A DNA stretch of 64,000 bases from Patescibacteria group bacterium (GCA_038062675.1 JBBTWP010000003.1:129378-193377); one strand, 5' to 3'. Counted from the stretch's first letter, positions 1 through 38,102 are shown. A program made the numbers and translations. The notes: generated by a model from the letters alone, not told the origin.

Positions 1-435
1 TCCTATCGCACCCAAAAGTCCGTTTGCCGGCGTCGTCGCTCCAACACCGGCAAACGCAGGAGGGGATCCATATCGGGAGCCGATTGAATAACAGTCGCTC
101 GACACGCTCCTTTTTTTAGGGCGCCACGCCTTCTCCTGCGGAAGGCTCGCTAATCCTCGGCGCTTTTCGTGCAGATTACTGCACGAACCAAGCAAAGCGC
201 CTGCGGACCCTGAAAAAAGGAGGTGTCTCGCTCTAAGTGCATACAAACTAGTTTGGGATGAAGGTTTTTGGAGCCTTGCGCAGCCTGACGAGGCGAGCGG
301 AGCAATTCGCCAGCAGGCGAATATGCGTGCCACAAAAACCTTCATCTCAAATGAGTTCTGTTTTTAAACTTCAGTCGTACCCTTAAAACGACACAGCGAG
401 CAAAGAGTTCCGCAGTTTGGTCGCGCTTAACGGAC
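1..435. other. GC-rich non-coding leader region with several hairpins, including a 15-bp inverted repeat (256-270 / 333-347) enclosing about 60 nt. Candidate structured RNA or regulatory region.
   Basis: No convincing ORF (the 150..335 minus ORF has no supporting motifs). GC content is visibly above the local average. The arms gatgaaggtttttgg and ccaaaaaccttcatc are perfect reverse complements. Confidence 0.3.
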
Positions 436-461
436 TTGCGCGACACGATTCCGCAGAATCG
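419..461 (+). promoter_or_regulatory. Copy 1 of the conserved bipartite element: hairpin GGTCGCGC...GCGCGAC followed by palindrome CGATTCCGCAGAATCG (446-461). It sits upstream of a TATAAT (487-492) and the PrgI-like gene.
   Basis: The same architecture recurs at 33832-33876 and 44776-44820. A -10 TATAAT lies 25 nt downstream, followed by an ATG at 499. Confidence 0.55.
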
Positions 462-498
462 AGTTTTTTATTCTCTGCGCATGCGGTATAATAATTGT

Positions 499-927
499 AT
501 GCAGTTTCACATCCCTCAACATCTTGAGATCGAAGATAAAATTTTTGGTCCGCTTACCATAAAGCAAGCGATTTACAGTGCTGGTGGGGCAGGGGGAGCA
601 TTTCTCATTTACAAAATCGTTCCTTCTGTTTTTTTTGCAGCTCCACTCATAGTCCTACTCGGCGCACTGACATGGGCGCTCGCATTCTATCCGGAGGAAA
701 AGCTCGGTAAACCATTTATCGAAATCCTTGAATCCGCAGTAAAATATTTTTTTGGCGAAAAACTTTACACGTGGAAAAAAACAAAAAAAGATGTTGCTCT
801 CGGAGAAGAGCAGGAGTTCATTTCAGCAAAAGGCCCTTCTGTTCCCATGGTTTCAAAAGGGGGACTTGCCTCCAAGTCATTTGACCTCGATGTAATCAAA
901 ACGGGGGAGAAACAAGAAAAATTATAA
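499..927 (+). CDS. PrgI-family small membrane protein (T4SS component; VirB3 functional analogue). The start is probably at 499 rather than the track's 436.
   Basis: The KIFGPLTIKQ motif is typical of the PrgI family, and two hydrophobic helices follow. The track ORF 436..927 would begin inside the upstream palindromic element. TATAAT-N6-ATG at 487-501 suggests a leaderless start. Confidence 0.5.
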   Translation: MQFHIPQHLEIEDKIFGPLTIKQAIYSAGGAGGAFLIYKIVPSVFFAAPLIVLLGALTWALAFYPEEKLGKPFIEILESAVKYFFGEKLYTWKKTKKDVALGEEQEFISAKGPSVPMVSKGGLASKSFDLDVIKTGEKQEKL

Positions 928-934
928 TAATCAT

Positions 935-1588
935 ATGGCAGTCAAATCAACCGCAGCTCAAAATTTTGTTCCCATCAAAGAAATTCGTGATGGTGTGATT
1001 ATTTTGAAAGATGGTACCTTGCGCACAATCCTCATGGCATCATCAGTAAATATTGCACTCAAATCCGAAGACGAACAATCGGCAATTCTTATGCAATTTC
1101 AAAACTTTTTAAACTCCCTTGAATTTTCAACACAAATTTTTATCCAGTCGCGACGTCTCGATATTCATCCCTACCTCATGCTCCTCGAGGAACGCCTTCG
1201 TGAAGAAGTGAACGACCTTTTGAAAATTCAAATTCGTGAGTACATGAACTTCATAAAAACGGTTGCCAAATCAACCAACATTATGAACAAACTATTCTTA
1301 ATTGTGGTACCGTACGCTCCTCCAAAATCAGTTACGGCGTCGGATGAGAAGAAAGGTTTTTTTGGTTCAGTGACAAAGAAAACATCAAATCCAGTACTTT
1401 CAAAGGGAGCGATGGATGCATTTGAGGAAGCCCGCTCCCAGCTCGAGCAGCGCGCAGGCGTTATCAGCCAAGGACTTTCCCGAACAGGGGTTCGCGTAGT
1501 CGGCCTCGGCACAGAAGAACTTACCGAGCTCTACTACCGCCTCTTTAACCCAGGCGAAGCAGAGAAGCAAACGTCCAAACAACAATAA
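935..1588 (+). CDS. VirB4/TraC-family N-terminal domain, encoded as a separate ORF. Either a naturally split VirB4 or a frameshifted one.
   Basis: The pattern I recognise as the VirB4 N-terminal domain is present (FVPIKEIRDGVIILKDGTLRTILMASSVNIALKSEDEQ...). The ORF ends 12 nt before the ATG of the ATPase ORF. The two ORFs total about 825 aa, the size of a full VirB4. Confidence 0.5.
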   Translation: MAVKSTAAQNFVPIKEIRDGVIILKDGTLRTILMASSVNIALKSEDEQSAILMQFQNFLNSLEFSTQIFIQSRRLDIHPYLMLLEERLREEVNDLLKIQIREYMNFIKTVAKSTNIMNKLFLIVVPYAPPKSVTASDEKKGFFGSVTKKTSNPVLSKGAMDAFEEARSQLEQRAGVISQGLSRTGVRVVGLGTEELTELYYRLFNPGEAEKQTSKQQ

Positions 1589-1599
1589 TCACCATCACC

Positions 1600-3426
1600 A
1601 TGTTTGATTTTTTATCAAAAAAGAATACCGCACCTGAAACAAAGAACACAGTTCCTGTACTCCCGCAGGAGCTCTACAGCGACACAAGCCTGAGCCTCAC
1701 TGATGTCATAGCTCCTTCCGCAGTCAAAATAAACCCAAAAGATATCAACTTGGGGGAGAAGATCGTGCGCACCTTTTTTGTAACATCATACCCAAGCGTG
1801 GTGACCGACAATTGGCTCTCACCGCTCATCAATCTCGACAAAGTCTTTGATATTTCAATCTATATCCACCCTGTCGACACCGCGGGTATCATGAAGAAAT
1901 TTGAGCGCAAGGTTGCTGAAGTACAAAGTCAAATCAACATGCGCGAACAAAAAGGATTCGTTCGCGACCCCATGCTCGAAGCGGCACATCGCGACTTGGA
2001 AGACCTCCGCGACCGACTCCAACAAGCACAGGAAAAAATGTTTGATGTGGGACTTTACCTTTCACTCTACGCCGACACCGAAGAAGAGCTCATGGGCGTT
2101 GAAGCTGAAATCAAATCCATGCTCGAGTCGCGCTTGATCTACCTCCGCCCTGCACTCTTTCAGCAAGGGGAGGCGTTCTTAAGCGTTCTTCCGGTAAACG
2201 ATGACAAAATTGCTGTTACCCGAAAAATCAATTCCGAACCACTCTCAAGCTTCTTCCCGTTTGTGTCTTTCGACCTCACCTCAGACCACGGCATTCTCTA
2301 CGGTATCAACCGCCACAACTCATCCCTTGTTCTTTTTGACCGATTCTCGCTCGAAAACTACAATTCCATCACGTTTGCAAAGTCAGGTTCGGGTAAATCC
2401 TACGCCACTAAACTCGAAATTTTGCGCAGTCTTATGTTCGACGTGGATGTTATTGTTATCGATCCCGAACGCGAGTACGAATCCATGGCGGAAGCTGTTG
2501 GTGGGCGTTATTTCAATATTTCCCTCAACTCCGAACACCATATCAATCCTTTTGATTTACCTGTCCCAAGAGAAGGGGAGTCGCCAGCAGACGTACTTCG
2601 CTCCAATGTTATTGCCTTGGTGGGACTTTTTCGTCTCATGTTGGGTGGGCTCACCGCCGAAGAAGACGCGATTGTCGACCGTGCAATCTCAGAAACCTAC
2701 GCGCTCAAGGACATTACCCCTGATTCAGACTTCTCAACCCTTCAACCACCACTTCTTTCAGACTTTGAAATGATTCTTTCAGGAATGCAGGGAGCAGAAA
2801 GTATCGTTCAGAAACTTTCAAAATACACCCGCGGATCATGGTCCGGGTTCTTGAACCAACCCTCAAATGTGGACATTAACCGCAAATTCATTGTCTTTTC
2901 CGTGCGCGACATGGAGGACGACCTGAAGCCGGTCGCGATGTACATCGTGACGCATTTTATCTGGAATGCCATCCGTCGTACCCTCCGCAAACGCCTTTTG
3001 GTTGTGGATGAAGCGTGGTGGATGATGAAGTCTGACGACACCGCCGCATTCCTTTACGCGCTTGCAAAGCGTGGGCGTAAATATTATCTTGGTATCGCGA
3101 CCATCACTCAAGATGTGAATGACTTTTTGAAATCTCCCTACGGTTTGCCCATTATGACCAACTCGTCTATCCAAATTCTTCTCAAGCAATCACCAACATC
3201 TATTGAATCCATTCAAAAAGCCTTCAATCTCACCAATGAAGAAAAATTCCTCTTGCTTGAGTCGGGCGTAGGGGAGGGGATATTCTTTGCCGGCATGAAA
3301 CACGTCGCCATCAAAACGATTGCATCCTACACCGAAGACCAAATCATCACCTCTGACCCTTCTCAAATCCTTGCCATCAAAAAAGCAAAGCAAGAGCTCG
3401 CTTTGGCTGAGGAAGCCAGTCGGTAA
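1600..3426 (+). CDS. virB4: VirB4/TrbE/CagE-like T4SS ATPase (C-terminal ATPase part).
   Basis: Walker A FAKSGSGKSYATK is present. A DExx-like VVDEAWWMM box is present. Overall length and layout fit conjugative ATPases. Confidence 0.8.
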   Translation: MFDFLSKKNTAPETKNTVPVLPQELYSDTSLSLTDVIAPSAVKINPKDINLGEKIVRTFFVTSYPSVVTDNWLSPLINLDKVFDISIYIHPVDTAGIMKKFERKVAEVQSQINMREQKGFVRDPMLEAAHRDLEDLRDRLQQAQEKMFDVGLYLSLYADTEEELMGVEAEIKSMLESRLIYLRPALFQQGEAFLSVLPVNDDKIAVTRKINSEPLSSFFPFVSFDLTSDHGILYGINRHNSSLVLFDRFSLENYNSITFAKSGSGKSYATKLEILRSLMFDVDVIVIDPEREYESMAEAVGGRYFNISLNSEHHINPFDLPVPREGESPADVLRSNVIALVGLFRLMLGGLTAEEDAIVDRAISETYALKDITPDSDFSTLQPPLLSDFEMILSGMQGAESIVQKLSKYTRGSWSGFLNQPSNVDINRKFIVFSVRDMEDDLKPVAMYIVTHFIWNAIRRTLRKRLLVVDEAWWMMKSDDTAAFLYALAKRGRKYYLGIATITQDVNDFLKSPYGLPIMTNSSIQILLKQSPTSIESIQKAFNLTNEEKFLLLESGVGEGIFFAGMKHVAIKTIASYTEDQIITSDPSQILAIKKAKQELALAEEASR

Positions 3427-3504
3427 TTTCTTTTCTCTTTATGTTCCACAGGGTGTGGATATAACTGGATAGCATCTATTCTTATTTCGCGGTATACTAT
3501 TTTT

Positions 3505-4635
3505 ATGCATCGCATGCGTTTTTTCTCACAAGGCGTTATATTGGGGACACTCTTTGCGCTCCCTGTTTTTATATTTGCACAGACGACCACTGGAACATCT
3601 ACTGCAGAAAAAACTGCCCTTCAAGAACAACTTGACACTCTTGTTCAAAGTCGTATCAATCAACTTTCCAGTCCGGCACAAATTCGCATAAATGCCATCC
3701 GCGACTATCTCGAAATTACCACGAGCCCAAAATACCCAAAACCAAATGAGTTGGTGCGTATTACAATAGAAAGTTATCTTACCGACCTCAACAAAGCAAC
3801 GCTTGCTTGGTCAGTAAATGGCGACGTAGTCACACAGGGTATTGGGAAAAAAACTTTCTCCTTTAACAACGGTGCATCAGGAAAAACGACACGCGTCAGT
3901 GTTTTGATACGCACCAACGGGGGAGAAGTGGTTGTTAAGGAATTTTCCTTTAGCCCTATTGGTGTCACCATTCTTTGGGAAGCAGACACCTACACACCGC
4001 CATTCTATAAGGGCAAACCTCTTGCATCCGCACAATCAAGCATCCGCGCCGTCGCCATCCCTGACACCGGCAATGCAAAAAATATTTTAGGCGCGGGAAA
4101 TCTGGTATATGTATGGAAAAAGAACGGTAACAACGTTTCCGAAGCATCAGGCTATGCAAAAAATTCATTCACATTCACAGCACCAAAACCTTACGACGAA
4201 GCAAGTGTCGGGGTTCAGGTTTCTCCAATCGATAGCAATACTGTAAAATCGGAAACACGCGTAAATGTCCCGCTCTCCAATCCTTTTGTTATGTTTTACG
4301 AAAAACACCCCCTCGAAGGCGTGCGCTACGACCGCCCATTAGGAACAAAATTCGCTCTTTCAGGGAAAGAGGTCACCTTGCGCGCAGAACCTTATTTCTT
4401 TTCAAATGAATCCGGCAACAAATCAACCCTGTCCTACCAATGGTCACTCAATGGAAAAAAGACCAGCAATCAAGGACGCACCATTACCCTCAAGAACGAC
4501 AAGGGGGTAAAAGGGGACTCAACCATCAGTATTGCAATTCACGGAATCACACAAACATTCCAATCAGGAAGCAAATCAATCATGCTTCATTTTGGAGAGA
4601 ATACTGACAGTGATATTGAACGACCCATTTTTTAA
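3505..4635 (+). CDS. Secreted protein with a signal peptide, beta-rich, unknown function. Part of the T4SS-like operon.
   Basis: N-terminal signal peptide MHRMRFFSQGVILGTLFALPVFIFAQ. The gene is tightly packed with its neighbours. Confidence 0.5.
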   Translation: MHRMRFFSQGVILGTLFALPVFIFAQTTTGTSTAEKTALQEQLDTLVQSRINQLSSPAQIRINAIRDYLEITTSPKYPKPNELVRITIESYLTDLNKATLAWSVNGDVVTQGIGKKTFSFNNGASGKTTRVSVLIRTNGGEVVVKEFSFSPIGVTILWEADTYTPPFYKGKPLASAQSSIRAVAIPDTGNAKNILGAGNLVYVWKKNGNNVSEASGYAKNSFTFTAPKPYDEASVGVQVSPIDSNTVKSETRVNVPLSNPFVMFYEKHPLEGVRYDRPLGTKFALSGKEVTLRAEPYFFSNESGNKSTLSYQWSLNGKKTSNQGRTITLKNDKGVKGDSTISIAIHGITQTFQSGSKSIMLHFGENTDSDIERPIF

Positions 4636-4647
4636 CACACTATTTTT

Positions 4648-5556
4648 ATGAAATATCTTGCACCAATTCTCGCCGGCACAACTCTCGCACTTTTGGGAGG
4701 GGTGCTCTCTGTGGGTGCGGCGGAAACAATAGGGGAGTACACGCCCTTGGCGCCGCTTCCCGGAACGCTCATCGATGGGACAACGGCAACCAATCTCCCC
4801 ACCTATCTCGCCGGCATGATGAAACTTCTCATTGCCGTTGCGGGATCCCTTGCGTTCCTTATGATGGTCATCGGTGGCACGGAGTATGTTGCGGCAGGCA
4901 TCACTCCCGACGCAAAAGGTCACGCGAAAGAAAAAATCACCAACGCCATCATTGGACTCATCCTCACGCTCGTATCCTATCTCATTCTTCTCTCTATAAA
5001 CCCGCGACTGGTGGAATTTAACCTCGAACTACCGGCAATAGTGCCGAAATCGGAGGCAATTCTTGAAAACAACGTCTCAGGTAGTCCTGCCGGTCCGGGG
5101 GGTTTGGGTGATTCTGCAATACGATTGAGAATCATTAGTGGTGGGAATGACAAGATAACATTTAATCGCGACAATGTTGAGTGCGCAGAAATTGGCCAAA
5201 AAAATTGCACGACAGTATATGGCTTGGGTGAACAAGCAATCAAGGGGGTGATAAATCTCGCCGCCTACTGCACAGGGTGCAAAATAGTTATCACGGGAGG
5301 AACAGAGTACTGGAACCACAGCGAGGGGACAGCTCACAAACCAGGAGGAAACGTTCTAGATCTCTCAAAAAATGACACTGCGCTCAACACCCACATCACC
5401 AAAAATGGTCTTGCGACAAACCAAACAGGGTGTGCAAAGGGGAAACATTATGAAGTTACTGATCAGGCTACAGGAGACAAAATTGTTTATGTAGATGAAG
5501 AAACGGCAGGAACAAACAACGCCCCACATTGGCATGTATGCTTTAGTAGACAATAA
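4648..5556 (+). CDS. VirB2/TrbC-like pilin (signal peptide plus two TM helices) fused to a C-terminal Cys-rich, zinc DD-peptidase (M15/VanY, Hedgehog/DD-peptidase fold)-like domain.
   Basis: The N-terminus has the pilin layout: signal peptide, then the helices MMKLLIAVAGSLAFLMMVIGG and ITNAIIGLILTLVSYLILLSI. The C-terminus has ITGGTEYWNHSEGTAHKPGGNVLD and APHWHV. These resemble the SxHxxGxAxD and WH zinc-ligand motifs of M15 peptidases. Confidence 0.55.
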   Translation: MKYLAPILAGTTLALLGGVLSVGAAETIGEYTPLAPLPGTLIDGTTATNLPTYLAGMMKLLIAVAGSLAFLMMVIGGTEYVAAGITPDAKGHAKEKITNAIIGLILTLVSYLILLSINPRLVEFNLELPAIVPKSEAILENNVSGSPAGPGGLGDSAIRLRIISGGNDKITFNRDNVECAEIGQKNCTTVYGLGEQAIKGVINLAAYCTGCKIVITGGTEYWNHSEGTAHKPGGNVLDLSKNDTALNTHITKNGLATNQTGCAKGKHYEVTDQATGDKIVYVDEETAGTNNAPHWHVCFSRQ

Positions 5557-5563
5557 TTAATAT

Positions 5564-6862
5564 ATGGACCGTAAAAAAATTCTCATCATCGCCACCGTCA
5601 TCATCCTTGTCCTTGGGGGAGGAATTGGCGCGTATTACTATTTTTTAAAAAAACCCGTAACTCTCCCACCATCAGGCAACCCATTTCCGGGGGGAGGAAA
5701 CCTTGTTACCAAACCACCCCTCCCACCAGACAACAATCCTGACGATGGCGTCTTCCCCCCTTCAAATGCCAGCACGTCACGCCTCTACGAACTCCACAAA
5801 ACCCCCGTTGCTGGCGTCGGCTTTGCAGAACAAGTGAACGGCAAGAAGAAAACATTTTTTGCACGTTCGCTTGAGCGCGGGTTGGGCCACATATTTGAAA
5901 CAAACTTGGAGACATTGGTTGAATCTCGCATCTCGGGAGAAACATATCCGGGTATTACAGAGGCATTTTTCGGCAACAACGGAAAAAGTGTTATCATCCG
6001 TTCTCTCTCAGAACAAGAAGGGATTGCCATCAAAACTCGTTCGCTTGGACTTACTGCACCTACTATTTCTTTTGCACCAGCAAACAGCGACACAGGAGAA
6101 GCCAACATACCCCCACCAACAGAGACAAACCTTCCTGACTATATCCCACACCTAGGAGTAGCGGAAGACGGCGCCGACAAGATATTTTACATGGAAAACT
6201 CCTTTAGTAGCGCCCGTGGCTCAACTTCAAACTTCAAAGGCACGGCCATCTCGACTATTTTTAATTCATCATTCACTGAATGGTTGCCGCAACTACCCAA
6301 CCAAAAACTTGCGACCCTCACCACCAAGCCATCAAGCAATGTTCCGGGGCACCTTTACTTCATCGACACACAGAGCTCCGCACTCACCAAAATCCTTGGT
6401 GACGTAAAAGGGCTTACAACCACAACAAGTCGTGATGGAAAATTTGTACTCTACACAGAGGTCAAAGCAGGGGTTCCCAACCTTATTGCCTACGATGTTG
6501 CAAAAAAAGAATCTCGTCCACTTTCGCTCAACACACTTGCTGAAAAATGCGGATGGAGCACAAAAGATCCCGTCATCGCTTATTGCGCCATCCCTGAAAA
6601 CCCACCTCGTGGACAGTATCCTGATCAATGGTACCAAGGTGTAATTTCATTTTCTGACAGTATGTGGAAAATCAATGCAAAAACTGGCTTTGCAGAAAAA
6701 ATCTTCACCCCAGAAAAATACCGTGGTGGAATAATGGATATTATAAATCCTATTGTCTCTTCGGATGAAGCGTACTTAGTATTCATCAACAAGAAAACGA
6801 GCACCCCATGGCTCTTTATGCTCAATGAAAAGCCTCAAATCATCGTTCCCTCAACACAATAA
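5564..6862 (+). CDS. Membrane-anchored protein: N-terminal TM, proline-rich linker, beta-rich periplasmic domain. Unknown function; T4SS operon member.
   Basis: TM helix ILIIATVIILVLGGGIGAYYYFL followed by a Pro-rich stretch. No catalytic motifs recognised. Confidence 0.45.
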   Translation: MDRKKILIIATVIILVLGGGIGAYYYFLKKPVTLPPSGNPFPGGGNLVTKPPLPPDNNPDDGVFPPSNASTSRLYELHKTPVAGVGFAEQVNGKKKTFFARSLERGLGHIFETNLETLVESRISGETYPGITEAFFGNNGKSVIIRSLSEQEGIAIKTRSLGLTAPTISFAPANSDTGEANIPPPTETNLPDYIPHLGVAEDGADKIFYMENSFSSARGSTSNFKGTAISTIFNSSFTEWLPQLPNQKLATLTTKPSSNVPGHLYFIDTQSSALTKILGDVKGLTTTTSRDGKFVLYTEVKAGVPNLIAYDVAKKESRPLSLNTLAEKCGWSTKDPVIAYCAIPENPPRGQYPDQWYQGVISFSDSMWKINAKTGFAEKIFTPEKYRGGIMDIINPIVSSDEAYLVFINKKTSTPWLFMLNEKPQIIVPSTQ

Positions 6863-6955
6863 AAGAGTGGGATGAAGCATTGTGGATATGTGGTGCTTTA
6901 ACAAGCGGAAGGTGGCGCGGCAAAAAATTCATTTTAATTAACATCAGTAAACCTT

Positions 6956-8266
6956 ATGGTAAACCAAGAATTACTTACTTTCATCAAACAAGAGCTCGCG
7001 AGGGGAATAACCGAGAGCGACCTCAAAGCATCCCTCAGCACCGCAGGTTGGCCAGAAGCCGACATCTCTGAAGCATTTTCTCTTGCCACAGGAGGGACCT
7101 CAATGCCAGAACTGGGGCAACCAGCCATGCCTGTCTCCACAGTCCTTCTTGGCGCCCCAGCGCTTCTTGGTAAAGCATGGACGCTCTACAAACAGCGCTG
7201 GACGACCTTTTTGACCATCATGATTGCACCTGCTCTGCTATCGATTTTGGTTGAAGTAGGGTCTAGTTCAGTAAAAAACATGGGGGCCTCTTTAAATCCT
7301 TTCATTTTCTTTGGCGTTGCTCTTGTAATGTTGCTTGCTCTTGTAATAATCAACATCTGGTCAAGCGTTGCTCTCTTGCATGCCATCAAGGGAACTTCTG
7401 AGCACCTGAGCGTCACTGCCTCATACGGCAGAGGAGCGCGTCACATTCTTGCTTTTGTGTGGATTTCAATACTTACCACGCTCATTGTGATGGGTGGTTT
7501 TATGCTCCTCATTATCCCGGGAATTATTTTCGCTATTTGGTTCATGTTCGCAACAATGGTGGTTGTGGACGATAACACAAAAGGAATGAACGCGCTCCTC
7601 AAGAGCAGAGAGTACGTTCGTGGCAGGTGGTGGGGGACATGGTGGCGCATGTTTTTTGTGGGGTTAATTTTTATCCCTATTTTCATAGTACTGTTTATCC
7701 TCTCATACCTCCTGACGTTTAAATTTCTACTTCCGGTCGCCGGAGATATTCTCTCGACAATCTCGACCCTATTCCTGACACCCATCATGATGACCTATAT
7801 GTTTGTGCTCTATGAAAACCTCAAAGCAACCCGTGGCTCGTTTGCGTTCGCACCCACAACAGGAAAGAAAGCGCCTTTTATCATTTTGGCGATTTTAGTG
7901 CCCATTTTAATTATTGCATTTATAATCTTTTTAACTTATCTACAAGCAGACACTGCAAAAGACAAAGGGAGAGATCCTGCCATAAAATCAATTATTTCAA
8001 ACATCAAACCAGCTGCAGAGGTTTATTTCGACTCTCACAACAACTATGAAGGATTTTGCAAAAATAACCAACAAGTAAGGGAATCTATTGATACCATTGA
8101 TAAAATAGAAAAAATGGGCACAATATGCAATGCTAACATAACCCAGTATGCGATATCGGCACGCCTCTCGTCGGGAAAATACTTCTGTGTCGACAGCAGC
8201 CAAAACCCCGCAACCCTAACCTCCCGCGGCCTCAAACCCACGGAAACACAGTGCCCTACAGAATAG
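6956..8266 (+). CDS. Polytopic membrane protein (VirB6-like candidate) with a C-terminal type IV pilin-like globular domain.
   Basis: Multiple TM helices. The C-terminus (TAKDKGRDPAIKSIISNIKPAAEVYFDSHNNYEGFC...C) resembles the pilin head region (pattern RDAKR...LELYYxxNNxYxG..C). It is a paralogue of 25480..26262. Confidence 0.5.
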   Translation: MVNQELLTFIKQELARGITESDLKASLSTAGWPEADISEAFSLATGGTSMPELGQPAMPVSTVLLGAPALLGKAWTLYKQRWTTFLTIMIAPALLSILVEVGSSSVKNMGASLNPFIFFGVALVMLLALVIINIWSSVALLHAIKGTSEHLSVTASYGRGARHILAFVWISILTTLIVMGGFMLLIIPGIIFAIWFMFATMVVVDDNTKGMNALLKSREYVRGRWWGTWWRMFFVGLIFIPIFIVLFILSYLLTFKFLLPVAGDILSTISTLFLTPIMMTYMFVLYENLKATRGSFAFAPTTGKKAPFIILAILVPILIIAFIIFLTYLQADTAKDKGRDPAIKSIISNIKPAAEVYFDSHNNYEGFCKNNQQVRESIDTIDKIEKMGTICNANITQYAISARLSSGKYFCVDSSQNPATLTSRGLKPTETQCPTE

Positions 8267-8373
8267 CCAAAGCCGATTCGAACACCTAGCCAAAAACCCT
8301 CATTCGCGCTAGAATGCGGGGAGTGCTTGGCGCAAGCTTAACCAATTACCACATAACAACTTAGTATTTCTTC

Positions 8374-9105
8374 ATGATGGACTTTTTTTCAACCGTTTTT
8401 TACGAACCGCTCTATAATGCGTTGGTTTTTCTCATTTCTGTCGTTCCGGGCGCCAATGTAGGTTTCGCGATTATCCTTTTGACCCTCCTTGTCCGCACAA
8501 TATTGCTGCCCCTTTCCCACAAGTCGGTCGTTTCGCAGGCAAAAATGCGTGCGATTGCTCCCCATGTTGAAAAAGTGAAGGAAAAACACAAAGACAACAA
8601 ACAAGAACAAGCAAAAAAAATTATGGAGCTCTATAAAGAACACGGGGTCAACCCATTTTCAGGATGCCTCTTGCTCCTCATCCAACTCCCGATCATTTTT
8701 GCCCTCTATTTCGTATTCTTTAAGGGCTTACCAAATCTTGATGCTGATATTTTGTACTCATTTGTAAACCATCCGGGGACTATTAGTATGATGTTTTTGG
8801 GCATCTTGCTTTCAGGGAAGAGCATTTTGCTTGCAGCCATTGCGGCAATTAGCCAATATTACCAAATTAAGCTTTCTATTCCTGCCCTCGCAGCGCCAGA
8901 AGCAGGCGCAAAACCTTCATTCAAAGACGACTTCGCGCGTAGTTTCAACCTCCAAATGCGCTATATGCTTCCGCTTATCGTCTTTGGTGTCTCGTACACC
9001 ATCTCTGCGGCAATCGCGCTCTATTGGGCAACCAGCAACCTTTTCTCTATCGCTCACGAGCTTTATGTGAAGAGCAAGGCGGACAAGATAAAAGTTTTGT
9101 CGTAA
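8374..9105 (+). CDS. yidC: Membrane protein insertase YidC/Oxa1, short form.
   Basis: Conserved YidC core (LLPLSHKS..., EHGVNPFSGCLLLLIQLPIIFALYFVF). Located in the rpmH-rnpA-yidD neighbourhood. Confidence 0.85.
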   Translation: MMDFFSTVFYEPLYNALVFLISVVPGANVGFAIILLTLLVRTILLPLSHKSVVSQAKMRAIAPHVEKVKEKHKDNKQEQAKKIMELYKEHGVNPFSGCLLLLIQLPIIFALYFVFFKGLPNLDADILYSFVNHPGTISMMFLGILLSGKSILLAAIAAISQYYQIKLSIPALAAPEAGAKPSFKDDFARSFNLQMRYMLPLIVFGVSYTISAAIALYWATSNLFSIAHELYVKSKADKIKVLS

Positions 9106-9114
9106 CAATCCTCC

Positions 9115-9160
9115 TCAAGCCAAAAAACCTCAGGAAATTCCTGAGGTTTTTTGGCTTGAG
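9115..9160. terminator. Bidirectional intrinsic terminator between convergent yidC and yidD.
   Basis: Perfect long inverted repeat caagccaaaaaacctcagg / cctgaggttttttggcttg with A/T runs on both sides. Confidence 0.7.
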
Positions 9161-9163
9161 CAA

Positions 9164-9400
9164 CTACACCAATGGATCATCATGATTCTTCTGCCACGGA
9201 TGACACCGCAAAATGCGCCGTATGCCCAAAAATACCCCCTTCACGACACCATACTTCAACACCGCCTGCTTGGTATACTCTGAGCATGTTGGGTAGAATA
9301 CGCACGTTGTACCGCGTCTGAGGGTAAACATGCCGGTATCCGGCGAGAAAAGCTTTTGATAGCCGGTAATGACTGATGCGACTATGTTACGAAATATCAT
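9164..9400 (-). CDS. yidD: Membrane protein insertion efficiency factor YidD.
   Basis: VFYPTCSEY motif. Length about 78 aa. Overlaps the rnpA stop. Confidence 0.8.
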   Translation of the reverse strand: MIFRNIVASVITGYQKLFSPDTGMFTLRRGTTCVFYPTCSEYTKQAVLKYGVVKGVFLGIRRILRCHPWQKNHDDPLV

Positions 9401-9729
9401 GAGAGGAGTTTTGATTGTTGCAGCGCTTTTATTAATTCGGTACGTAAAACGGTGGGGGAGGAGGAGAGTGCCTCCTGTTTTGGATACACAACGACTGTTG
9501 CCGAACGCAAATTTTTTATTTGAGGCTCCAAAAGTGCGTATAAACGGCGGCGAAGAGTATTCCGTACAACAGCAGATTTTGAAATTTTCTTGGAGGTAAC
9601 AACAGCAATATGAACGCCTTCACTTTTTGTATACACCACCAAAGAAAAGAGGGGAGAGAAAACGCGAAAACCCCGCACATTTGAGGCGGGGAAGTCTTTT
9701 CGTGATATGCGGTTCTTTTTAGACAACAT
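9397..9729 (-). CDS. rnpA: RNase P protein component.
   Basis: MLSKKNRISRKDF...RNTLRRRL. Position downstream of rpmH. Confidence 0.85.
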   Translation of the reverse strand: MLSKKNRISRKDFPASNVRGFRVFSPLFSLVVYTKSEGVHIAVVTSKKISKSAVVRNTLRRRLYALLEPQIKNLRSATVVVYPKQEALSSSPTVLRTELIKALQQSKLLS

Positions 9730-9750
9730 GTGTGGTCAAAAAACACCAAT

Positions 9751-9792
9751 TAGACATTTGGACGATTTGGACGTCCAACGTCCAAATGTCTA
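9751..9792 (-). terminator. Hairpin between rpmH and rnpA (attenuator/terminator-like).
   Basis: Inverted repeat tagacatttggacg ... cgtccaaatgtcta with a nested ttggacgtccaa palindrome. This position is a known attenuation point in rpmH-rnpA operons. Confidence 0.45.
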
Positions 9793-9806
9793 AAACATTC
9801 GAGGTA

Positions 9807-9944
9807 TTATACGGTTGAAAGTCGCTTGCGGCCCTTTTGGCGACGGCGCTTAATCACATTCTTTCCGTTTTTTGATGCACTGCGGACAAGGAAACCATGG
9901 GTTCCTGCGCGTTTCTTCTTTTTTGGCTGGTATGTTTGCGACAT
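9807..9944 (-). CDS. rpmH: 50S ribosomal protein L34. Not in the ORF track because it is under 60 aa.
   Basis: Reverse-strand translation gives [45 protein letters not shown]. Confidence 0.8.
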
Positions 9945-10075
9945 AATAAGCCACTATACACTATGTTCCCAGAAAAATCCAGCTTTTTGGAAAATACTTA
10001 TCATTTCCAGCCAAGATGGGATTTTACCCAGTTTGCATTCCCTGCAACTTATTGGGTATAATGACAGTCCACACG

Positions 10076-10084
10076 TTATCCACA
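10076..10084 (+). promoter_or_regulatory. Consensus DnaA box TTATCCACA upstream of dnaA.
   Basis: Exact 9-mer match. Confidence 0.6.
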
Positions 10085-10169
10085 GTTTAGAAACACTCTC
10101 ATCCCCGTGTGTTGGTTTCGTATGAGCATTAGAAAGACTATAATACAAAGAACAGCCTCTTACCCCTTT

Positions 10170-11525
10170 ATGCTCGACAATACACAACTTTGGGATCACA
10201 CACTGCGCGAACTCGGGAACGAGCTGTCTCGGGCAAATTTTAGTACATGGTTTAAAAACACTGCGATCACCAAACAAGAAGATGGTATCGTCACTATTGG
10301 TGTTCCCAATGAGTTTGTAAAAGATTGGTTGCAAAACAAATTCCACAAAATGATTCTGAAATCATTGCGTGGGCTTTCTGAACATGTCCGTAATATTGAA
10401 TATGTAATTTGCAAGATTGAAGAAAAATCTGATAAAAAACAAACTGAAAAAACTCCATCAAACCCAACATCTGAGCTTCCTTTGGAAAACCTTTATATCG
10501 ACCGTGCGGATGGGCTTAACCCTCGTTATGCATTTGATAGCTTTGTGATCGGAGCGTTTAATGAACTTGCGTACGCCGCATCTCAAGCAATCTTAAAAAA
10601 AGTGGGAAAGAATGTATACAACCCTTTATTTATTTATGGCAATACCGGACTTGGAAAAACTCATCTCATTCAAGCTATCGGCAATCAAGTAAAAAAACTA
10701 CACCCTGATAAAAAAGTATTTTACACGACATCAGAAAAATTTTCAGTGGACTACATCAGTTCAGTAGGGCAGGGGTCGAAGACAATGAATACTTTTAAAG
10801 ATAAGTACCGAAAATACGATCTCTTAATTATGGATGACATCCAATTCCTTTCAAATAAAGAAAAAACTCAAGAGGAACTCTTTCATATCTTTAACGAACT
10901 TTATAATAACAACAAACAAATTGTTTTTTCTTCCGATCGTCATCCAAACTATATTCCTGCACTTGAAGAACGCCTTAAATCTCGTTTTAATGCTGGAATG
11001 ACTGTAGATGTGCAGGAGCCTGAATATGAATCACGGCTCGCTATTTTACGGGCAAAAGCCGACAGTAGTAAATTCTTCCCTCCAGATGAAATTATTGAAT
11101 ATCTTGCTTCATCAATCCAAGGAAATGTTCGTGAATTGGAAGGGCTTTTAAATGGTGTTATTTGCCAATCACAGCTTAAAAATAGGCATTTAACACTTAA
11201 TGAGATTAAACCCTTTATAAAGAACACGTCAAAACCAAAAAAACTTCTTTCTGTGAAAGAAATAGTGAAGGTGGTGTGCGGTTTTTACAATATTGAAGAA
11301 GATCATGTGTATGAAAAAACAAGAAGGAAAGAAGTAGTGAAACCACGCCAAGTTGCAATGTTTATTTTGCGCGAGGATTTCAATATCTCATATCCAACTA
11401 TTGGACAAAAATTAGGTGGTCGTGATCACACCACTGTTATGCATTCGTATGATAAAATTAAAGTAGATATGAAGAATGATTTATCGCTTATGCAGGAGGT
11501 TGATCAGATCCGCGCAATGTTTTAA
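10170..11525 (+). CDS. dnaA: Chromosomal replication initiator DnaA. The ORF is open from 10107; the likely start is MLDNTQLW at 10170.
   Basis: AAA+ Walker A GNTGLGKTHL is present. A C-terminal DnaA box-binding HTH is present. Confidence 0.9.
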   Translation: MLDNTQLWDHTLRELGNELSRANFSTWFKNTAITKQEDGIVTIGVPNEFVKDWLQNKFHKMILKSLRGLSEHVRNIEYVICKIEEKSDKKQTEKTPSNPTSELPLENLYIDRADGLNPRYAFDSFVIGAFNELAYAASQAILKKVGKNVYNPLFIYGNTGLGKTHLIQAIGNQVKKLHPDKKVFYTTSEKFSVDYISSVGQGSKTMNTFKDKYRKYDLLIMDDIQFLSNKEKTQEELFHIFNELYNNNKQIVFSSDRHPNYIPALEERLKSRFNAGMTVDVQEPEYESRLAILRAKADSSKFFPPDEIIEYLASSIQGNVRELEGLLNGVICQSQLKNRHLTLNEIKPFIKNTSKPKKLLSVKEIVKVVCGFYNIEEDHVYEKTRRKEVVKPRQVAMFILREDFNISYPTIGQKLGGRDHTTVMHSYDKIKVDMKNDLSLMQEVDQIRAMF

Positions 11526-11538
11526 AACGTGGATTACT

Positions 11539-11713
11539 TGTGGATAGAGTTGTTGTTATGTGTTGATAGGTATGTGGAAAAGTTTACCTGAAACATATTC
11601 AAAAAAATATTATCCACAAAGAGGTGAGTGTTGTTCCTATAATAACAAAAAGTATGAGAGGGGATTTTACTAAGCAATTAAAACGGTTTAATAGAGTTAT
11701 CCACTTATCCACA
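11539..11713. promoter_or_regulatory. dnaA-dnaN intergenic DnaA-box cluster. This is the putative oriC / DUE region.
   Basis: tgtggatag at 11539-47 (reverse orientation, 1 mismatch). ttatccaca at 11610-18. ttatccact at 11697-705. ttatccaca at 11705-13. The surrounding spacer is AT-rich. Confidence 0.65.
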
Positions 11714-11761
11714 CCTATAGTAATAATAATAAGAATTTAAAGTAATAATTAATACAATACT

Positions 11762-12862
11762 ATGAACCTCTCTTGTAATCGTGAATTTCTTCAAAAATGT
11801 ATTTCATCTGCTGATCGAGTAACAGGAAAACATTTAAGCCTTCCTATTTTAGGAACTGTTTTTATTGCAACTGATCATAAAAAAATAATTATTCGTGCAA
11901 CAAATCTTGAAGTAGGTGTTGAGTTTCAAATTCCTGCTACTATAAAAACAGAAGGAAGTGTTGCACTTCCAGGAAGTCTTTTAGCAAATATTCTTTCAAG
12001 TATTACTGATGAACAAGAAATAAATATCAGTGTTTCTGGAAGTGTTGGGAAAATAACCACAAAAACAAAAAATCTTACGATTAAAGGTTTTTTACCTGAT
12101 GATTTCCCAACTATTCCTTTAGTTAATGAAGGTGATAAATTTACCCTTCCAGCAGTAAAATTTATACAAGGTGTTAAGTCAGTGGTAGGGAGTGCGGCTA
12201 TTTCTGATATAAAACCTGAAATCTCAAGCATTTATATTCATCAAGTAGGAGATTTTTTGATTTTTGCCGCAACAGACTCATTTCGTCTTTCTGAAAAGAA
12301 AATAAAATACCAAGGGACCGCGTTAACACATGGAATTATTATACCTGTAAAAAATATCCTTGAAGTGGTAAGAATTCTTGAACAAAACCAAGAGGATATT
12401 TCATTCACCGCGACAAAAAATCAATTTTCTTGCGCAGGAAAGTCTGTTTACATAACTTCCCGTGTTGTACAAGGGGTGTATCCTGATTACGAGCAAATCC
12501 TCCCTAAAGGGCACACCACAGAAGTGGTTATGTTGAAACAAGATCTTTTAAACACTTTAAAATTATCTACACTTTTTTCCGATAAATTCAATAAAATAAC
12601 ATTTACTATAAACCCTCAGCAAAAAAAGTGTATTATTGCGACAAAAAACACAGAAATTGGGGAAATTGAGTCAAATCTTACCGCAACTCTTTCTGGGGAA
12701 CCCATTGAACTTTCATTGAATGGAAAACACCTTTTTGATTCACTGGGGTCAATCGAAAAAGATAGTGTGATTATTCAGTTCAATGGAGCAGACAAACCGG
12801 CAGTTATTCGCGGGCTTGGTGATCCATCATTCACCAACCTCACAATGCCCCTTACACAATAA
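11762..12862 (+). CDS. dnaN: DNA polymerase III beta sliding clamp.
   Basis: N-terminal MNLSCNREFLQKCISSADRVTGKHLSLPILGTVFI. Length 366 aa. Position after dnaA. Confidence 0.9.
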   Translation: MNLSCNREFLQKCISSADRVTGKHLSLPILGTVFIATDHKKIIIRATNLEVGVEFQIPATIKTEGSVALPGSLLANILSSITDEQEINISVSGSVGKITTKTKNLTIKGFLPDDFPTIPLVNEGDKFTLPAVKFIQGVKSVVGSAAISDIKPEISSIYIHQVGDFLIFAATDSFRLSEKKIKYQGTALTHGIIIPVKNILEVVRILEQNQEDISFTATKNQFSCAGKSVYITSRVVQGVYPDYEQILPKGHTTEVVMLKQDLLNTLKLSTLFSDKFNKITFTINPQQKKCIIATKNTEIGEIESNLTATLSGEPIELSLNGKHLFDSLGSIEKDSVIIQFNGADKPAVIRGLGDPSFTNLTMPLTQ

Positions 12863-13116
12863 TGCTCCCTCTCGGTAATCTTCTCGCACGATTTAAAAAT
12901 CTCACCAACACAGAAAGGGTGCGAAAAGAGCTTATTTGTGAAGTTTTGAAAGAATTTAAGATTCCTCTTTTGAACACCCAAATATTTTTTTCAAAAAATA
13001 CCGTTTTTATAAAAGCACCACCTATTATAAAAACAGAAGTAGCACTTAAAAAAGGGGATATCCTCAAAAAAATCACCACAAATACAGGGTTGCGTCATAT
13101 TCAAGATATTTTTTAA
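12862..13116 (+). CDS. Small protein overlapping the dnaN stop (TAATG). Possibly a DUF721/DciA-like or S4-like RNA-binding protein.
   Basis: 1-nt overlap coupling with dnaN. No diagnostic motif recognised. Confidence 0.35.
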   Translation: MLPLGNLLARFKNLTNTERVRKELICEVLKEFKIPLLNTQIFFSKNTVFIKAPPIIKTEVALKKGDILKKITTNTGLRHIQDIF

Positions 13117-13132
13117 AATAGTTATACACGCG

Positions 13133-13141
13133 TTATCCACA
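13133..13141 (+). promoter_or_regulatory. Consensus DnaA box downstream of the dnaN operon.
   Basis: ttatccaca exact. A near-copy ttatacaca lies at 13122-30. Confidence 0.4.
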
Positions 13142-13297
13142 TACCACCCCTTGACAAACCTAATCTTTCAGATTACAATCTGTAATTAGATATACTATAA
13201 AGGAAATTTTCTTATATGGATTACAGAGTACCTTGTCAATTAATGATGGCATTGTGCCATCTCAACTCAATGTTTCAAGTGTTTCAGGAGGTTTACT

Positions 13298-14899
13298 ATG
13301 AAGACGCTCTCAAAGCTAATCTTTCTTTCCGTGGTTCTGGTGTTTGGTGTGACTGGCTGTAATGATGGGGGAGGAGATTCTCCGCCCCCTGTAAAACAGG
13401 AGCCGATTCCGGTTCCTGTGCCAACACCTGAACCTGCACCATTTCCATTACCGGCGCCTGAAAAACTCACTATTACCAAAACTAGTCTAGCAAACCGAGT
13501 TTCTTCCACGCTAGGCTTTCAAGAAGTAGGCAGATTTTCAATCTCAGCTCTCGGGGAAAAGAATTTTTCTTCCGAAGGGGAAATGATGCTTACTTTTGGT
13601 GGCACACTTGCAGGGAGTGTTGGGTATGTGAGGATTATGGATATTTCAAGAATAGGTTATGTGGAAGAACGTATTTCTTCTGAACACACCGGAGCTCCTG
13701 TGGAGAACAAGAAAGCCACTGTGGTTTTCTCGACCCCAATTGTTGGTTCAAAAATCATGGCAACCTGGTTGGTTGACGAAAAGTACACCTCAGACTTTTC
13801 TGTGGAAGTAGCCCTTGTGGGAGTTGATCCAATACCTCATGGTTCTTTTGCGGATTTGACTGTTACCATAGAAACAAAAGACCATATACAGTTTGGGAAC
13901 AATGTCGTTGTGGCAGAGTTTCCATTTCGTCTTGCTGTTGCTCGTATTGAAACAGGTAAGTTGTTTTTTGCAAAAGATTCTGAGATTGTACGAGAGGATG
14001 TGGAAACGGGAGTTAATACTGTTTTAACATTCTCGCCGCAGGTTGCGGAACGCAACATGGTGCCTTCGCGTGACGGTAATAAGCTTGCTTTCATTGCGGA
14101 TCTTTTGGGCGTAAATGTTGTTAATGTGGGAATAATGGACAGTAATGGCGATGGGTGTTTTGTAGTAGATGCAGCTGGATGTAATCAGGCGTATCAGATT
14201 GTGCAGGCTCATATCTGTTATGCCACAGAACGTATCGCTTTGTTTCCAAACATCAATATGGTTGCTTGTCCCGGGACGAATTTTAGGGATAATAGTCTTA
14301 AACGCGCGAGAAACATATTTCTCACGCAAATCTCCCCAAATCTTGGAGCGCAACTTACCAATGATGTGTATGAGGACTTTGAGTCTGTTGTTTCTGCTGA
14401 TGGCAAGATGACCTACTTTCTTTCCTGTCGCCCGTTTGATAAGCCGGAAGCTCCTTTTGTTGAATACGTAGGAGGTTGTGGTATTTTTAAACGGGAAATT
14501 ATTGATTTGGATAAATTAGTTTTTGGTCCAATTCAATATGTGGTGGGAAGGGGGGATTGGAAGTTTGGCAGTGGAGGTGATTCACTTTCCGGTATTTCTC
14601 TGTCTCCTGATGACAAACAGTTAGTATTTTCTCGCGACATCGGAACAAGGAACTTTTTTGGGTCGATGGCAACGGTAAGTATTGTAAACACTGACGGAAC
14701 GGTACTTAAGGAGATTGGTGAAGGATTTCATCCGTACTGGGTCACTGATGGAAGGATTCTCTACAAAAAGAAATCTTCTCTTTTTGGCAGAGAAATTATC
14801 CTCAGTGATTCCGACGGAAGTAATCCGCGTGTTGTTTTGAAGTTGAAAGATGGAATTTCTGGTCAGGAATCGGCAACAAGTGTAACGTTTATCCCTTAA
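13298..14899 (+). CDS. Lipoprotein with a Pro-rich linker and a beta-propeller-like C-terminal domain.
   Basis: Signal peptide with lipobox VTGC. PEPAPFPLPAPE linker. RBS GGAGG upstream. Confidence 0.55.
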   Translation: MKTLSKLIFLSVVLVFGVTGCNDGGGDSPPPVKQEPIPVPVPTPEPAPFPLPAPEKLTITKTSLANRVSSTLGFQEVGRFSISALGEKNFSSEGEMMLTFGGTLAGSVGYVRIMDISRIGYVEERISSEHTGAPVENKKATVVFSTPIVGSKIMATWLVDEKYTSDFSVEVALVGVDPIPHGSFADLTVTIETKDHIQFGNNVVVAEFPFRLAVARIETGKLFFAKDSEIVREDVETGVNTVLTFSPQVAERNMVPSRDGNKLAFIADLLGVNVVNVGIMDSNGDGCFVVDAAGCNQAYQIVQAHICYATERIALFPNINMVACPGTNFRDNSLKRARNIFLTQISPNLGAQLTNDVYEDFESVVSADGKMTYFLSCRPFDKPEAPFVEYVGGCGIFKREIIDLDKLVFGPIQYVVGRGDWKFGSGGDSLSGISLSPDDKQLVFSRDIGTRNFFGSMATVSIVNTDGTVLKEIGEGFHPYWVTDGRILYKKKSSLFGREIILSDSDGSNPRVVLKLKDGISGQESATSVTFIP

Positions 14900-14920
14900 T
14901 TTTGTACATTTGGTTTATTT

Positions 14921-14957
14921 AAAGGGTCTTGCTTCACAGCGAGACCCTTTTTTTTTG
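14921..14957 (+). terminator. Intrinsic terminator.
   Basis: agggtcttgc-ttcaca-gcgagaccct hairpin followed by T9. Confidence 0.65.
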
Positions 14958-14970
14958 CCCACATTCCCAC

Positions 14971-14979
14971 TTATCCACA
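14971..14979 (+). promoter_or_regulatory. Isolated consensus DnaA box upstream of the Gly-rich protein gene.
   Basis: ttatccaca exact. Confidence 0.35.
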
Positions 14980-15054
14980 CCTCCACATAGTATTCACTTC
15001 CCCACACTGATATACTAAGGAAGTATTATCAAACCAACCATCATTTATTATATT

Positions 15055-16185: not shown

Positions 16186-16355
16186 GAATTTTTCTTTGGC
16201 CCCCGATTGGCCCCCGAGGTGAGACCTCGGTAAAAAGACCTCGGTAAAATAAATTTGTGGTGTAATTTAAACAAAATTCTTAAAAATCCCCAAGATTAGA
16301 AGTCTTGGGGATTTTTACTTAAAGGGGAAAGGAGGTCAGGTACCCTTTATTTTTG

Positions 16356-16450
16356 GGTGTAATTTAAAAATCTCTTGAGGTGAAATCTCGAGAGATTTTT
16401 GTTGTACGCCTTTTGAAGGGAAAGGGATCTTTTGGAAATGAAAGCGGGGG
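16356..16450 (+). repeat. 95-bp direct repeat, copy A. It contains the hairpin aaaatctcttgagg-tgaaat-ctcgagagatttt.
   Basis: About 96% identical to 17861..17955. A partial third copy of its 5' end (ttgtggtgtaatttaaa) lies at 16253-16269. Confidence 0.8.
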
Positions 16451-16544
16451 AGGTGAGGCAGCTTTTAGATTTGCTGCCAATTTATAGCCATGGTTTATAT
16501 AGCTATTTTCCACAAAAGAAAGATTTGCTATTTTTTTAGCAATT

Positions 16545-36400: not shown

Positions 36401-36402
36401 AA

Positions 36403-38019: not shown

Positions 38020-38102
38020 TAGATTCCGAATGTATTTAGTAGAAAAAATGACAAAAAATGACAAAAAATAAGGGTGTGAATAAGTAGTAAATCAAATAGT
38101 TT

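Follow-up and report, generated by a model that had tools for sequence, protein, structure and literature searches.

Which kind of secretion machine stands beside the replication origin of a Patescibacteria chromosome, and what might it be for? We analyzed a 64,000-nucleotide stretch of a Patescibacteria group genome (GCA_038062675.1, JBBTWP010000003.1:129378-193377; hereafter the window), which begins with a string of genes resembling those of type IV secretion systems (T4SSs). The original prediction, made from the sequence of the stretch alone, had described positions 436-8266 as a compact T4SS-like operon for host interaction rather than conjugation. Our results make it likely that window positions 1-6862 are the downstream half of a Patescibacteria-clade T4SS that is chromosomal and vertically inherited and derives from the MPF-FATA conjugation machinery of monoderm bacteria. 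The locus belongs to an already described class and is a textbook instance of the Patescibacteria T4SS. The class of system being known, the part that seems to be new is a pilin fused to a peptidase-like domain and the swapping of such domains among relatives.

The core of the system is encoded by three adjacent genes. The first (499-927) specifies a PrgI-family protein of 142 amino acids (aa), the VirB3 equivalent, which has a hydrophobic hairpin and would be the membrane partner of VirB4. It matches Pfam PF12666 above the curated cut-off (E 2.1e-9, 38 bits versus 27), in agreement with the prediction of a PrgI-like protein. The same 142-aa call is found in four public assemblies, and the true start of the gene is the ATG at 499 used there; position 436, given earlier as the start of the feature, is the TTG at which the open reading frame (ORF) itself opens. 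The third gene (1600-3426) encodes a 608-aa VirB4-family ATPase that matches the CD1110-family model NF045971 of NCBIfam over model positions 182-734 (E 2.9e-112, 376 bits versus a cut-off of 325) and the Pfam model P-loop_TraG (E 8.7e-26). Its Walker A (KSGSGKS) and Walker B (VVDEAW) motifs are intact in the translation, and it is the predicted motor of the system.

The predicted VirB4 was hence correct as to the ATPase and incomplete as to the genes, of which there are two: a 217-aa protein encoded at 935-1588 had been overlooked. NCBIfam VirB4 models match this protein only over the N-terminal ~120 positions, a TrsD/TraD match has an E value of 7e-6, and PF26593 (TraC-like) is on record for it; we therefore identify it as TrsD, a free-standing homologue of the VirB4 N-domain. 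It is 29% identical (E 9e-26) to a 274-aa protein that precedes VirB4 on a Pontibacillus plasmid. We ruled out a frameshift or pseudogene as the cause of the split, which is kept on that plasmid and in 79 of 80 related loci collected by a VirB4 search with one genome per species (median TrsD length, 214 aa). The split is therefore ancestral. The plasmid (Pontibacillus sp., NZ_CP062975) is a Firmicute megaplasmid typed as non-mobilizable, and its cluster (7468-17021), which adjoins flagellar genes, encodes in order an Mbov_0395-family pilin-like protein, a 779-aa polytopic protein, PrgI-like and TrsD-like proteins, VirB4 and a 1050-aa DD-metalloendopeptidase. MPF-FATA relatives that have both a pilin and a split VirB4 are therefore not confined to Patescibacteria.

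How far does the cluster extend? The same DNA is present in a contig from a groundwater metagenome (L004; Hainich, Germany), which we recovered through an exact protein match. The contig is identical to the window across the overlap with its first 600 bases, window position 1 corresponding to L004 9503, and adds 9.5 kb. The cluster runs ~7 kb further upstream, and what had been called compact is only its downstream half. Directly upstream of prgI lies u6, encoding a proline-rich 309-aa protein (L004 8664-9593) and ending on the plus strand at window position 91 (window 1-91). Farther upstream are u4 (753 aa, polytopic; L004 5367-7628), u3 (622 aa, secreted; L004 3491-5359) and u2 (270 aa, bitopic; L004 2672-3484), and then u1 for a PG_binding_1 protein on the minus strand (L004 1521-2573), the rRNA methyltransferase gene ksgA (L004 683-1474) and the 3' end of a uvrD/pcrA helicase gene (L004 1-476). 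A further gene, u5 (148 aa, single transmembrane (TM) segment; L004 8062-8508), sits between u4 and u6 and has a homologue in none of the 80 related loci. VirB4 is followed by g4 (376 aa; 3505-4635), the pilin-peptidase fusion (302 aa; 4648-5556) and g6 (432 aa; 5564-6862). The six genes from prgI to g6 all lie on the plus strand with intergenic gaps of 7, 11, 78, 12 and 7 nt in the ORF listing, and therefore form the tight operon that had been predicted. The operon does not include the seventh ORF of the string, g7 (6956-8266, plus strand), which begins 93 nt after 6862 and is outside the system.

We analyzed synteny among the 80 loci by BLAST followed by iterated hidden Markov models; 54 loci had enough upstream and 63 enough downstream sequence. 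The conserved order is ksgA, (u1), u2, u3, u4, u6, PrgI, TrsD, VirB4, g4, pilin, g6, yidC, rnpA, dnaA and dnaN, with yidC and rnpA on the minus strand. PrgI is present in 76, TrsD in 79, the pilin in 73 and VirB4 in all of the 80 loci. Upstream, u2, u3, u4 and u6 were found in 44, 49, 52 and 53 of the 54 loci, and both g4 and g6 in 63 of 63 downstream. These ten genes make up a conserved cluster of ~13 kb whose order is shared by 54-63 species-level Paceibacteria genomes; u5 and the 436-aa g7 protein occur only in the genome of the window. VirB4 is 72-89% identical to its homologues in the 80 loci, and its best matches in more than 5000 plasmid records are at most 38% identical. Judged by percent identity, it appears to group with the Patescibacteria homologues and not with the VirB4 proteins of plasmids or integrative and conjugative elements (ICEs). 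The closest homologues (86-89%) are from Ca. Yonathbacteria, and the source organism is a Ca. Yonathbacteria-like member of the Paceibacteria. The remaining loci (72-76%) carry the labels Nomurabacteria, Kaiserbacteria, Taylorbacteria, Zambryskibacteria and Adlerbacteria, generic Paceibacterota or Patescibacteria, and, in many cases, Saccharibacteria.

Could the cluster nevertheless be a conventional ICE, or the decaying remnant of one, with its relaxase, coupling protein and integrase outside the examined sequence? VirB4, PrgI and TrsD have homologues among the conjugation proteins that plasmids and ICEs of Firmicutes encode, and VirD4-like genes are often far from virB4. We searched 73.5 kb of the genome, from -9.5 kb to +55 kb. 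Pfam and NCBIfam scans of the upstream 9.5 kb showed no relaxase, type IV coupling protein (T4CP)/VirD4 or integrase. Immediately upstream, where such genes would have marked a conventional ICE, there are four further genes of the conserved cluster, followed by ksgA and uvrD/pcrA. Downstream, where no VirD4 or relaxase had been seen before, we scanned the largest 30 ORFs of the 13-64 kb interval with Pfam. No T4CP/VirD4, relaxase or integrase domain turned up in these ORFs, which represent housekeeping genes, surface proteins, a PilB-type ATPase and a type III restriction-modification system. The linked relaxase, T4CP and integrase or replication module of a conjugative element are thus missing from 9.5 kb upstream and 55 kb downstream. 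Housekeeping genes directly flank the cluster, ksgA on one side and yidC-rnpA-rpmH-dnaA-dnaN on the other, all its ORFs are intact, and its GC content (44-47%) is like that of the surrounding genome. The same position and order recur in dozens of species-level genomes whose VirB4 proteins are 72-89% identical, and this conserved synteny refutes a mobile element. Vertical inheritance is thus indicated by the constancy of site and gene order and by a GC content like that of the host genome, and we regard an ICE as highly improbable.

A vertically inherited T4SS is also what the literature describes. In a survey of 3,035 Patescibacteria genomes (Quinonero-Coronel et al. 2025, PMC12102498), VirB4 was found in ~80%, and its sequences branched within MPF-FATA as one monophyletic clade. 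Of the components that accompanied VirB4, TrsD was the commonest, with PrgI/VirB3, VirB6 and VirB2-like pilins nearby; relaxases were almost absent and T4CPs rarely adjacent; and in Paceibacteria the cluster lay near dnaA, dnaN, rnpA, rpmH and ksgA (PMC12102498). Our locus, with its conserved synteny and lack of a relaxase, matches this description point for point, which supports the original prediction of a non-conjugative, host-interaction T4SS-like system. In Saccharibacteria, epibiotic growth requires the corresponding cluster, including its pilins, and this cluster has no recognisable coupling or relaxase proteins (Wang et al. 2023, PMC10633639). A non-conjugative role in host interaction is suggested here by the absence of evidence for mobility and, by analogy, by these experiments in Saccharibacteria.

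Which protein takes the place of VirB6? The original prediction had assigned this role to the g7 protein (436 aa). We rejected this assignment: g7 has no TrbL/VirB6 signal and only weak UPF0259/YciC matches, has no homologue, and hence no linkage to virB4, in the 80 related loci, and shows no similarity to PrgH of pCF10 or to the u4 family. In databases it has 59 homologues, with the domains PF06790, PF25231 and PF10110 (glycerophosphodiester phosphodiesterase membrane domain); TPR repeats are fused to some of them, and the source genomes of some bear the label Deltaproteobacteria or Thermodesulfovibrionales. By eye, the C-terminal ~100 residues of g7 look pilin-like. The gene encodes a YciC/UPF0259-type membrane protein and represents an insertion, specific to the lineage, that separates yidC from the T4SS operon. 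The candidate lies upstream instead: u4 is probably the VirB6 equivalent and a likelier one than g7. It has ~7 hydrophobic segments, made up of one signal or TM segment and six more, and a charged, hydrophilic tail of ~400 aa. Pfam TrbL matches it over profile positions 32-214 of 215 (E 0.012, below cut-off) and matches 3 of 53 u4 relatives (best E 2.6e-4). Aligned by hhalign with the polytopic protein at the equivalent position of the Pontibacillus VirB6-PrgI-TrsD-VirB4 cluster, u4 gave a probability of 88% (E 3e-6), and its position is that of PrgH in pCF10. A search of the PDB with u4 as a single sequence gave nothing useful.

The gene between g4 and g6 (4648-5556, plus strand) encodes the fusion of a pilin and a peptidase-like domain. 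The protein consists of a signal peptide and two-helix hairpin (residues 1-128), a disordered linker (residues 130-147, pLDDT below 50) and a C-terminal zinc-peptidase-like domain of the LAS fold, 155 residues in size (residues ~150-302, nucleotides 5089-5556). The hairpin matches PF18895 (T4SS_pilin) above cut-off and structurally resembles the solved conjugative pilin 8dfu_B. The C-domain has the Hedgehog/DD-peptidase fold, and the T5 and Ply500 L-Ala-D-Glu peptidases, VanXY and a Streptomyces DD-peptidase ranked just below the top matches in the fold comparison. By sequence, the C-domain matches nothing in Pfam (including the curated M15, VanY and M23 families), NCBIfam or the PDB. Nothing useful came from PDB sequence searches in which the query was the single sequence of the fusion or its profile, and a Foldseek search with the full-length model gave no significant match, ShhN appearing only at E 0.83. 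Residues R159, C179, C187, G218, E220, H224, D238, E284, H294 and H296 are invariant among 65 homologues. Judged by conservation, E220, H224, D238, E284, H294 and H296 are compatible with a His/Asp/His metal triad plus a catalytic acid. The predicted pilin-peptidase fusion is thus borne out at the level of the fold, and the conserved His, Asp and Glu residues suggest that the domain may be catalytically competent. At 50% identity, no fewer than 484 representatives of its family are on record, and 130 of the best 150 members carry a pilin hairpin N-terminally. When the C-domain profile was compared by hhalign with the C-terminal regions of 68 sister pilins, it was related to those of its own subgroup only and unrelated to VanY-type domains; it constitutes a separate family.

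Relatives carry other domains at this position. We compared 75 positional homologues of the pilin, of which 63 match T4SS_pilin and 6 TrbC. The extensions of these proteins include NlpC/P60 (7), VanY (6), YkuD (4), M15_4 (2), SLT (2) and Amidase_5 (2), besides subtilase, CBM, TIG or Big domains. At least 60 residues follow the hairpin in 68 of the 75, and these tails fall into 39 BLAST clusters; many homologues also have an extra domain of 150-350 residues before the hairpin, and some relatives have short, unfused pilins of 124-190 aa. Hairpins ~50% identical to that of the window bear VanY in place of the LAS domain, and the pilin-borne domain differs even between genomes whose VirB4 is 86-89% identical to ours. 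By these comparisons, the pilin position looks like a hot spot for domain swapping. We tentatively propose that the T4SS pilin of Paceibacteria might be a modular carrier, in which a conserved VirB2-type hairpin presents rapidly exchanged extracytoplasmic domains. If the swapped domains are displayed on the pilus or at its tip and act on the host envelope, the pilin would be a wall-breaching device and also a determinant of host range, analogous to the logic of evolved VgrG proteins or polymorphic toxins. Pilin-enzyme fusions are not mentioned in the 2025 survey (PMC12102498), and we found no description of them in the searchable T4SS literature.

Does the fusion protein form a pilus at all? 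It is possible, if doubtful, that it does not, and that the hairpin is a membrane anchor tethering a peptidoglycan hydrolase at the translocon, as a fused equivalent of VirB1/PrgK acting on the cell's own wall. The fusion is the sole pilin-type gene in the window and its upstream extension, its gene has the position of that for the separate hydrolase PrgK in pCF10, and the bulk that most homologues carry after the hairpin, and many before it, would be hard to pack in a VirB2-type filament. Against a mere anchor speak the bona fide T4SS_pilin or TrbC matches of the hairpins, their resemblance to a solved conjugative pilin and the short, unfused versions in some relatives. Moreover, pilins are essential in the Saccharibacterial system (PMC10633639), and the disordered linker could be a processing site.

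Five of the ten conserved cluster genes (g4, g6, u2, u3 and u6) belong to no named family. The secreted protein predicted in the operon is g4, which has an N-terminal hydrophobic signal peptide and repeated Ig-like beta-sandwich modules; its 50 homologues show only weak Ig-like, BiPBP_C or PKD Pfam matches. The membrane-anchored, beta-rich protein, also predicted, is g6. It is bitopic: one TM helix at the N-terminus is joined by a linker rich in proline to a large, beta-rich ectodomain in which Trp and Cys residues are conserved; a Pfam domain is found in none of 120 homologues, similarity to TolB/PD40 is faint, and a PDB search with the g6 profile gave nothing useful. Two candidate relationships of g6 were rejected: it is related neither to PrgL, as an analogue of VirB8/PrgL would be, nor to the PD40 protein encoded at 13298-14899. 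No Pfam or NCBIfam family matches u6.

How could these parts work together? We infer the assembly, substrate and direction of transport as follows. VirB4, with TrsD supplying the missing N-domain, would dock on PrgI/VirB3 and the VirB6-like u4 to form a membrane translocon and would power the extraction and assembly of the VirB2-like pilin. The topology of the pilin, a signal peptide followed by TM-loop-TM, would put the C-terminal LAS peptidase outside the membrane, where it could cut peptidoglycan cross-links locally and so let the apparatus cross the cell wall. The proteins g4, g6, u2, u3 and u6 might form or decorate the wall-spanning part. The machine would most likely serve host contact, through protein transfer or uptake of host macromolecules, rather than conjugation, since no relaxase or coupling protein is in view. 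Reviews have speculated about effector delivery or the uptake of nutrients or nucleic acids (PMC11665869; PMC12857230), and tubular structures, possibly T4SS pili, have been seen at the interface between a Minisyncoccota parasite and its host (preprint 10.64898/2026.06.21.733656).

Alternatively, the system could be dedicated to import, a T4SS run in reverse like ComB of Helicobacter pylori or the archaeal Ced system and taking up host DNA, RNA or nucleotides on behalf of a cell unable to make them. The lack of a T4CP and a relaxase is shared with ComB, the T4SS has been proposed as a route of nucleotide acquisition (PMC11665869), and the above preprint ties the Minisyncoccota parasite to feeding on host RNA as well as to possible T4SS pili. 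Our VirB4 also has weak NCBIfam matches to the DNA-import ATPases CedB and CedD, but these are far below cut-off and confined to the shared P-loop region. In S. epibionticum, loss of comEC abolishes competence and not viability, so that any import would not go through ComEC. We consider a dedicated import machine rather unlikely.

Several observations weigh against a host-contact T4SS built in the way we propose. All evidence for u4 as VirB6 lies below curated thresholds, which leaves the assignment weak, and hhalign gave u4 and PrgH a probability of only 17%. Searches for VirB6 and VirB8 signals, which the original prediction had suggested, yielded u4 as a candidate for the former and no VirB8-like component. 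A pilin that bears a globular domain of 170 aa on each subunit may be unable to polymerise. Most Patescibacteria genomes have VirD4-like genes elsewhere, often far from virB4 (PMC12102498). Finally, a review calls the role of these T4SSs "completely unknown" (PMC11665869), and function in Paceibacteria has to be deduced.

The surroundings of the cluster have features of their own. As predicted, it adjoins the replication-origin gene set: downstream of the gene string are yidC (plus), yidD, rnpA and rpmH (minus), and dnaA and dnaN (plus). Followed over window 1-13000 and L004 1-12573, the GC skew is negative throughout the T4SS cluster; it switches sign at ~10-13 kb of the window and is positive past ~13 kb, and its cumulative minimum falls in the AT-rich stretch around dnaA, at ~10-11 kb. 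Transcription of the 13-kb cluster therefore runs toward the origin, head-on to replication. This orientation is kept in relatives and is unusual for a strongly conserved, presumably highly expressed operon. The yidC gene (8374-9105) is on the plus strand here and on the minus strand in 68 of the 68 relatives in which it was found; a 15-nt inverted repeat flanks it (8288-8302 and 9142-9156), and beyond the gene, on the side of the convergent yidD, lies a perfect palindrome of 23 bp (9114-9160). The flipped yidC, the repeats and the YciC-type g7 suggest a local inversion and insertion. Promoter and terminator scans were near shuffle expectation, and we took no signal from them. The 407-nt spacer between u6 and prgI (window 92-498) contains two long, near-perfect hairpins (minimum free energy -168 kcal/mol, z -8.55 versus shuffles) and has no match in Rfam. 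It is far shorter in close relatives, and the contigs of two further assemblies of the same population begin inside or just past it. The spacer could be an insertion resembling a miniature inverted-repeat transposable element, a structured leader or a pair of terminators.

Other loci lie farther into the window. A type III restriction-modification pair at 34301-40805 comprises an N6_N4 methylase (699 aa) and a ResIII helicase (900 aa), with a Schlafen/AlbA_2-HATPase_c_4 protein (36403-38019) inserted between them; the GC skew is strongly positive there. Genes for a PilB-type T2SSE ATPase (41169-42854) and a Peptidase_M23 protein (43487-44677), both on the minus strand, may belong to the machinery of type IV pili, the other envelope system that has been linked to epibiosis. 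At 16545-17690 and 24319-24993 there are a DUF4143/AAA_14 ATPase and an HTH-SocA/Panacea antitoxin-like protein, whose genes near the origin may serve defence or toxin-antitoxin functions.

Much of bacterial diversity belongs to the Patescibacteria, most of which live on other cells. Their origin-proximal T4SS is essential in the sole species tested. Our locus adds no new kind of system; it provides a cleanly delimited cluster of the Paceibacteria type with ten conserved genes. The pilin-peptidase fusion and the domain swapping make the question of what the T4SS touches a testable one. Which wall do the pilin-borne enzymes cut, that of the epibiont or that of the host, and does the swapped domain track the type of host?

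The closest known counterpart is the cluster SEML1_0006-0019 of Southlakia epibionticum. Both loci encode a VirB4 of MPF-FATA type, a separate TrsD, PrgI/VirB3, a VirB6 candidate and one or more VirB2-like pilins, and both are chromosomal, next to dnaA/dnaN/rnpA/rpmH/ksgA, with no relaxase or T4CP beside the cluster. The Saccharibacterial locus differs in that it has ~6 short, divergent pilins in an array and carries its peptidase and lysozyme genes separately, whereas a single pilin is fused to the peptidase here, and it has no named counterparts of g4, g6, u2, u3 and u6. The MPF-FATA systems (TrsC/TrsD/TrsE of pGO1, PrgH-PrgI-PrgJ-PrgK-PrgL of pCF10 and the Pontibacillus cluster) have the same core order of a polytopic membrane protein, PrgI, (TrsD), VirB4 and then a cell-wall hydrolase, and, as monoderm systems, share with our locus the lack of outer-membrane components. 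The conjugative ones come with VirD4 (PcfC), a relaxase (PcfG), surface adhesins and an oriT, and as a rule without pilins; their VirB4 proteins are ~30-38% identical to that of the window, and their hydrolase is a large, separate protein. ComB of H. pylori and archaeal Ced are also based on VirB4 without a relaxase or T4CP and set a precedent for non-conjugative use. However, they belong to other envelopes and have other components (VirB7-10 in ComB, CedA in Ced), and beyond the ATPase core there is no specific homology. With VirB1, PrgK and TcpG our cluster shares a wall-degrading activity, predicted in our case, that is encoded within the T4SS cluster; in other T4SSs the opening of peptidoglycan is the task of separate VirB1/PrgK hydrolases. 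Like evolved VgrG/PAAR proteins and polymorphic toxins, the Paceibacteria pilins appear to join a conserved carrier to variable C-terminal enzymatic domains (39 clusters in 68 homologues). In contrast to those systems, the carrier, known here from its sequence, is a pilin, and the domains it bears are predicted cell-wall enzymes instead of classical toxins.

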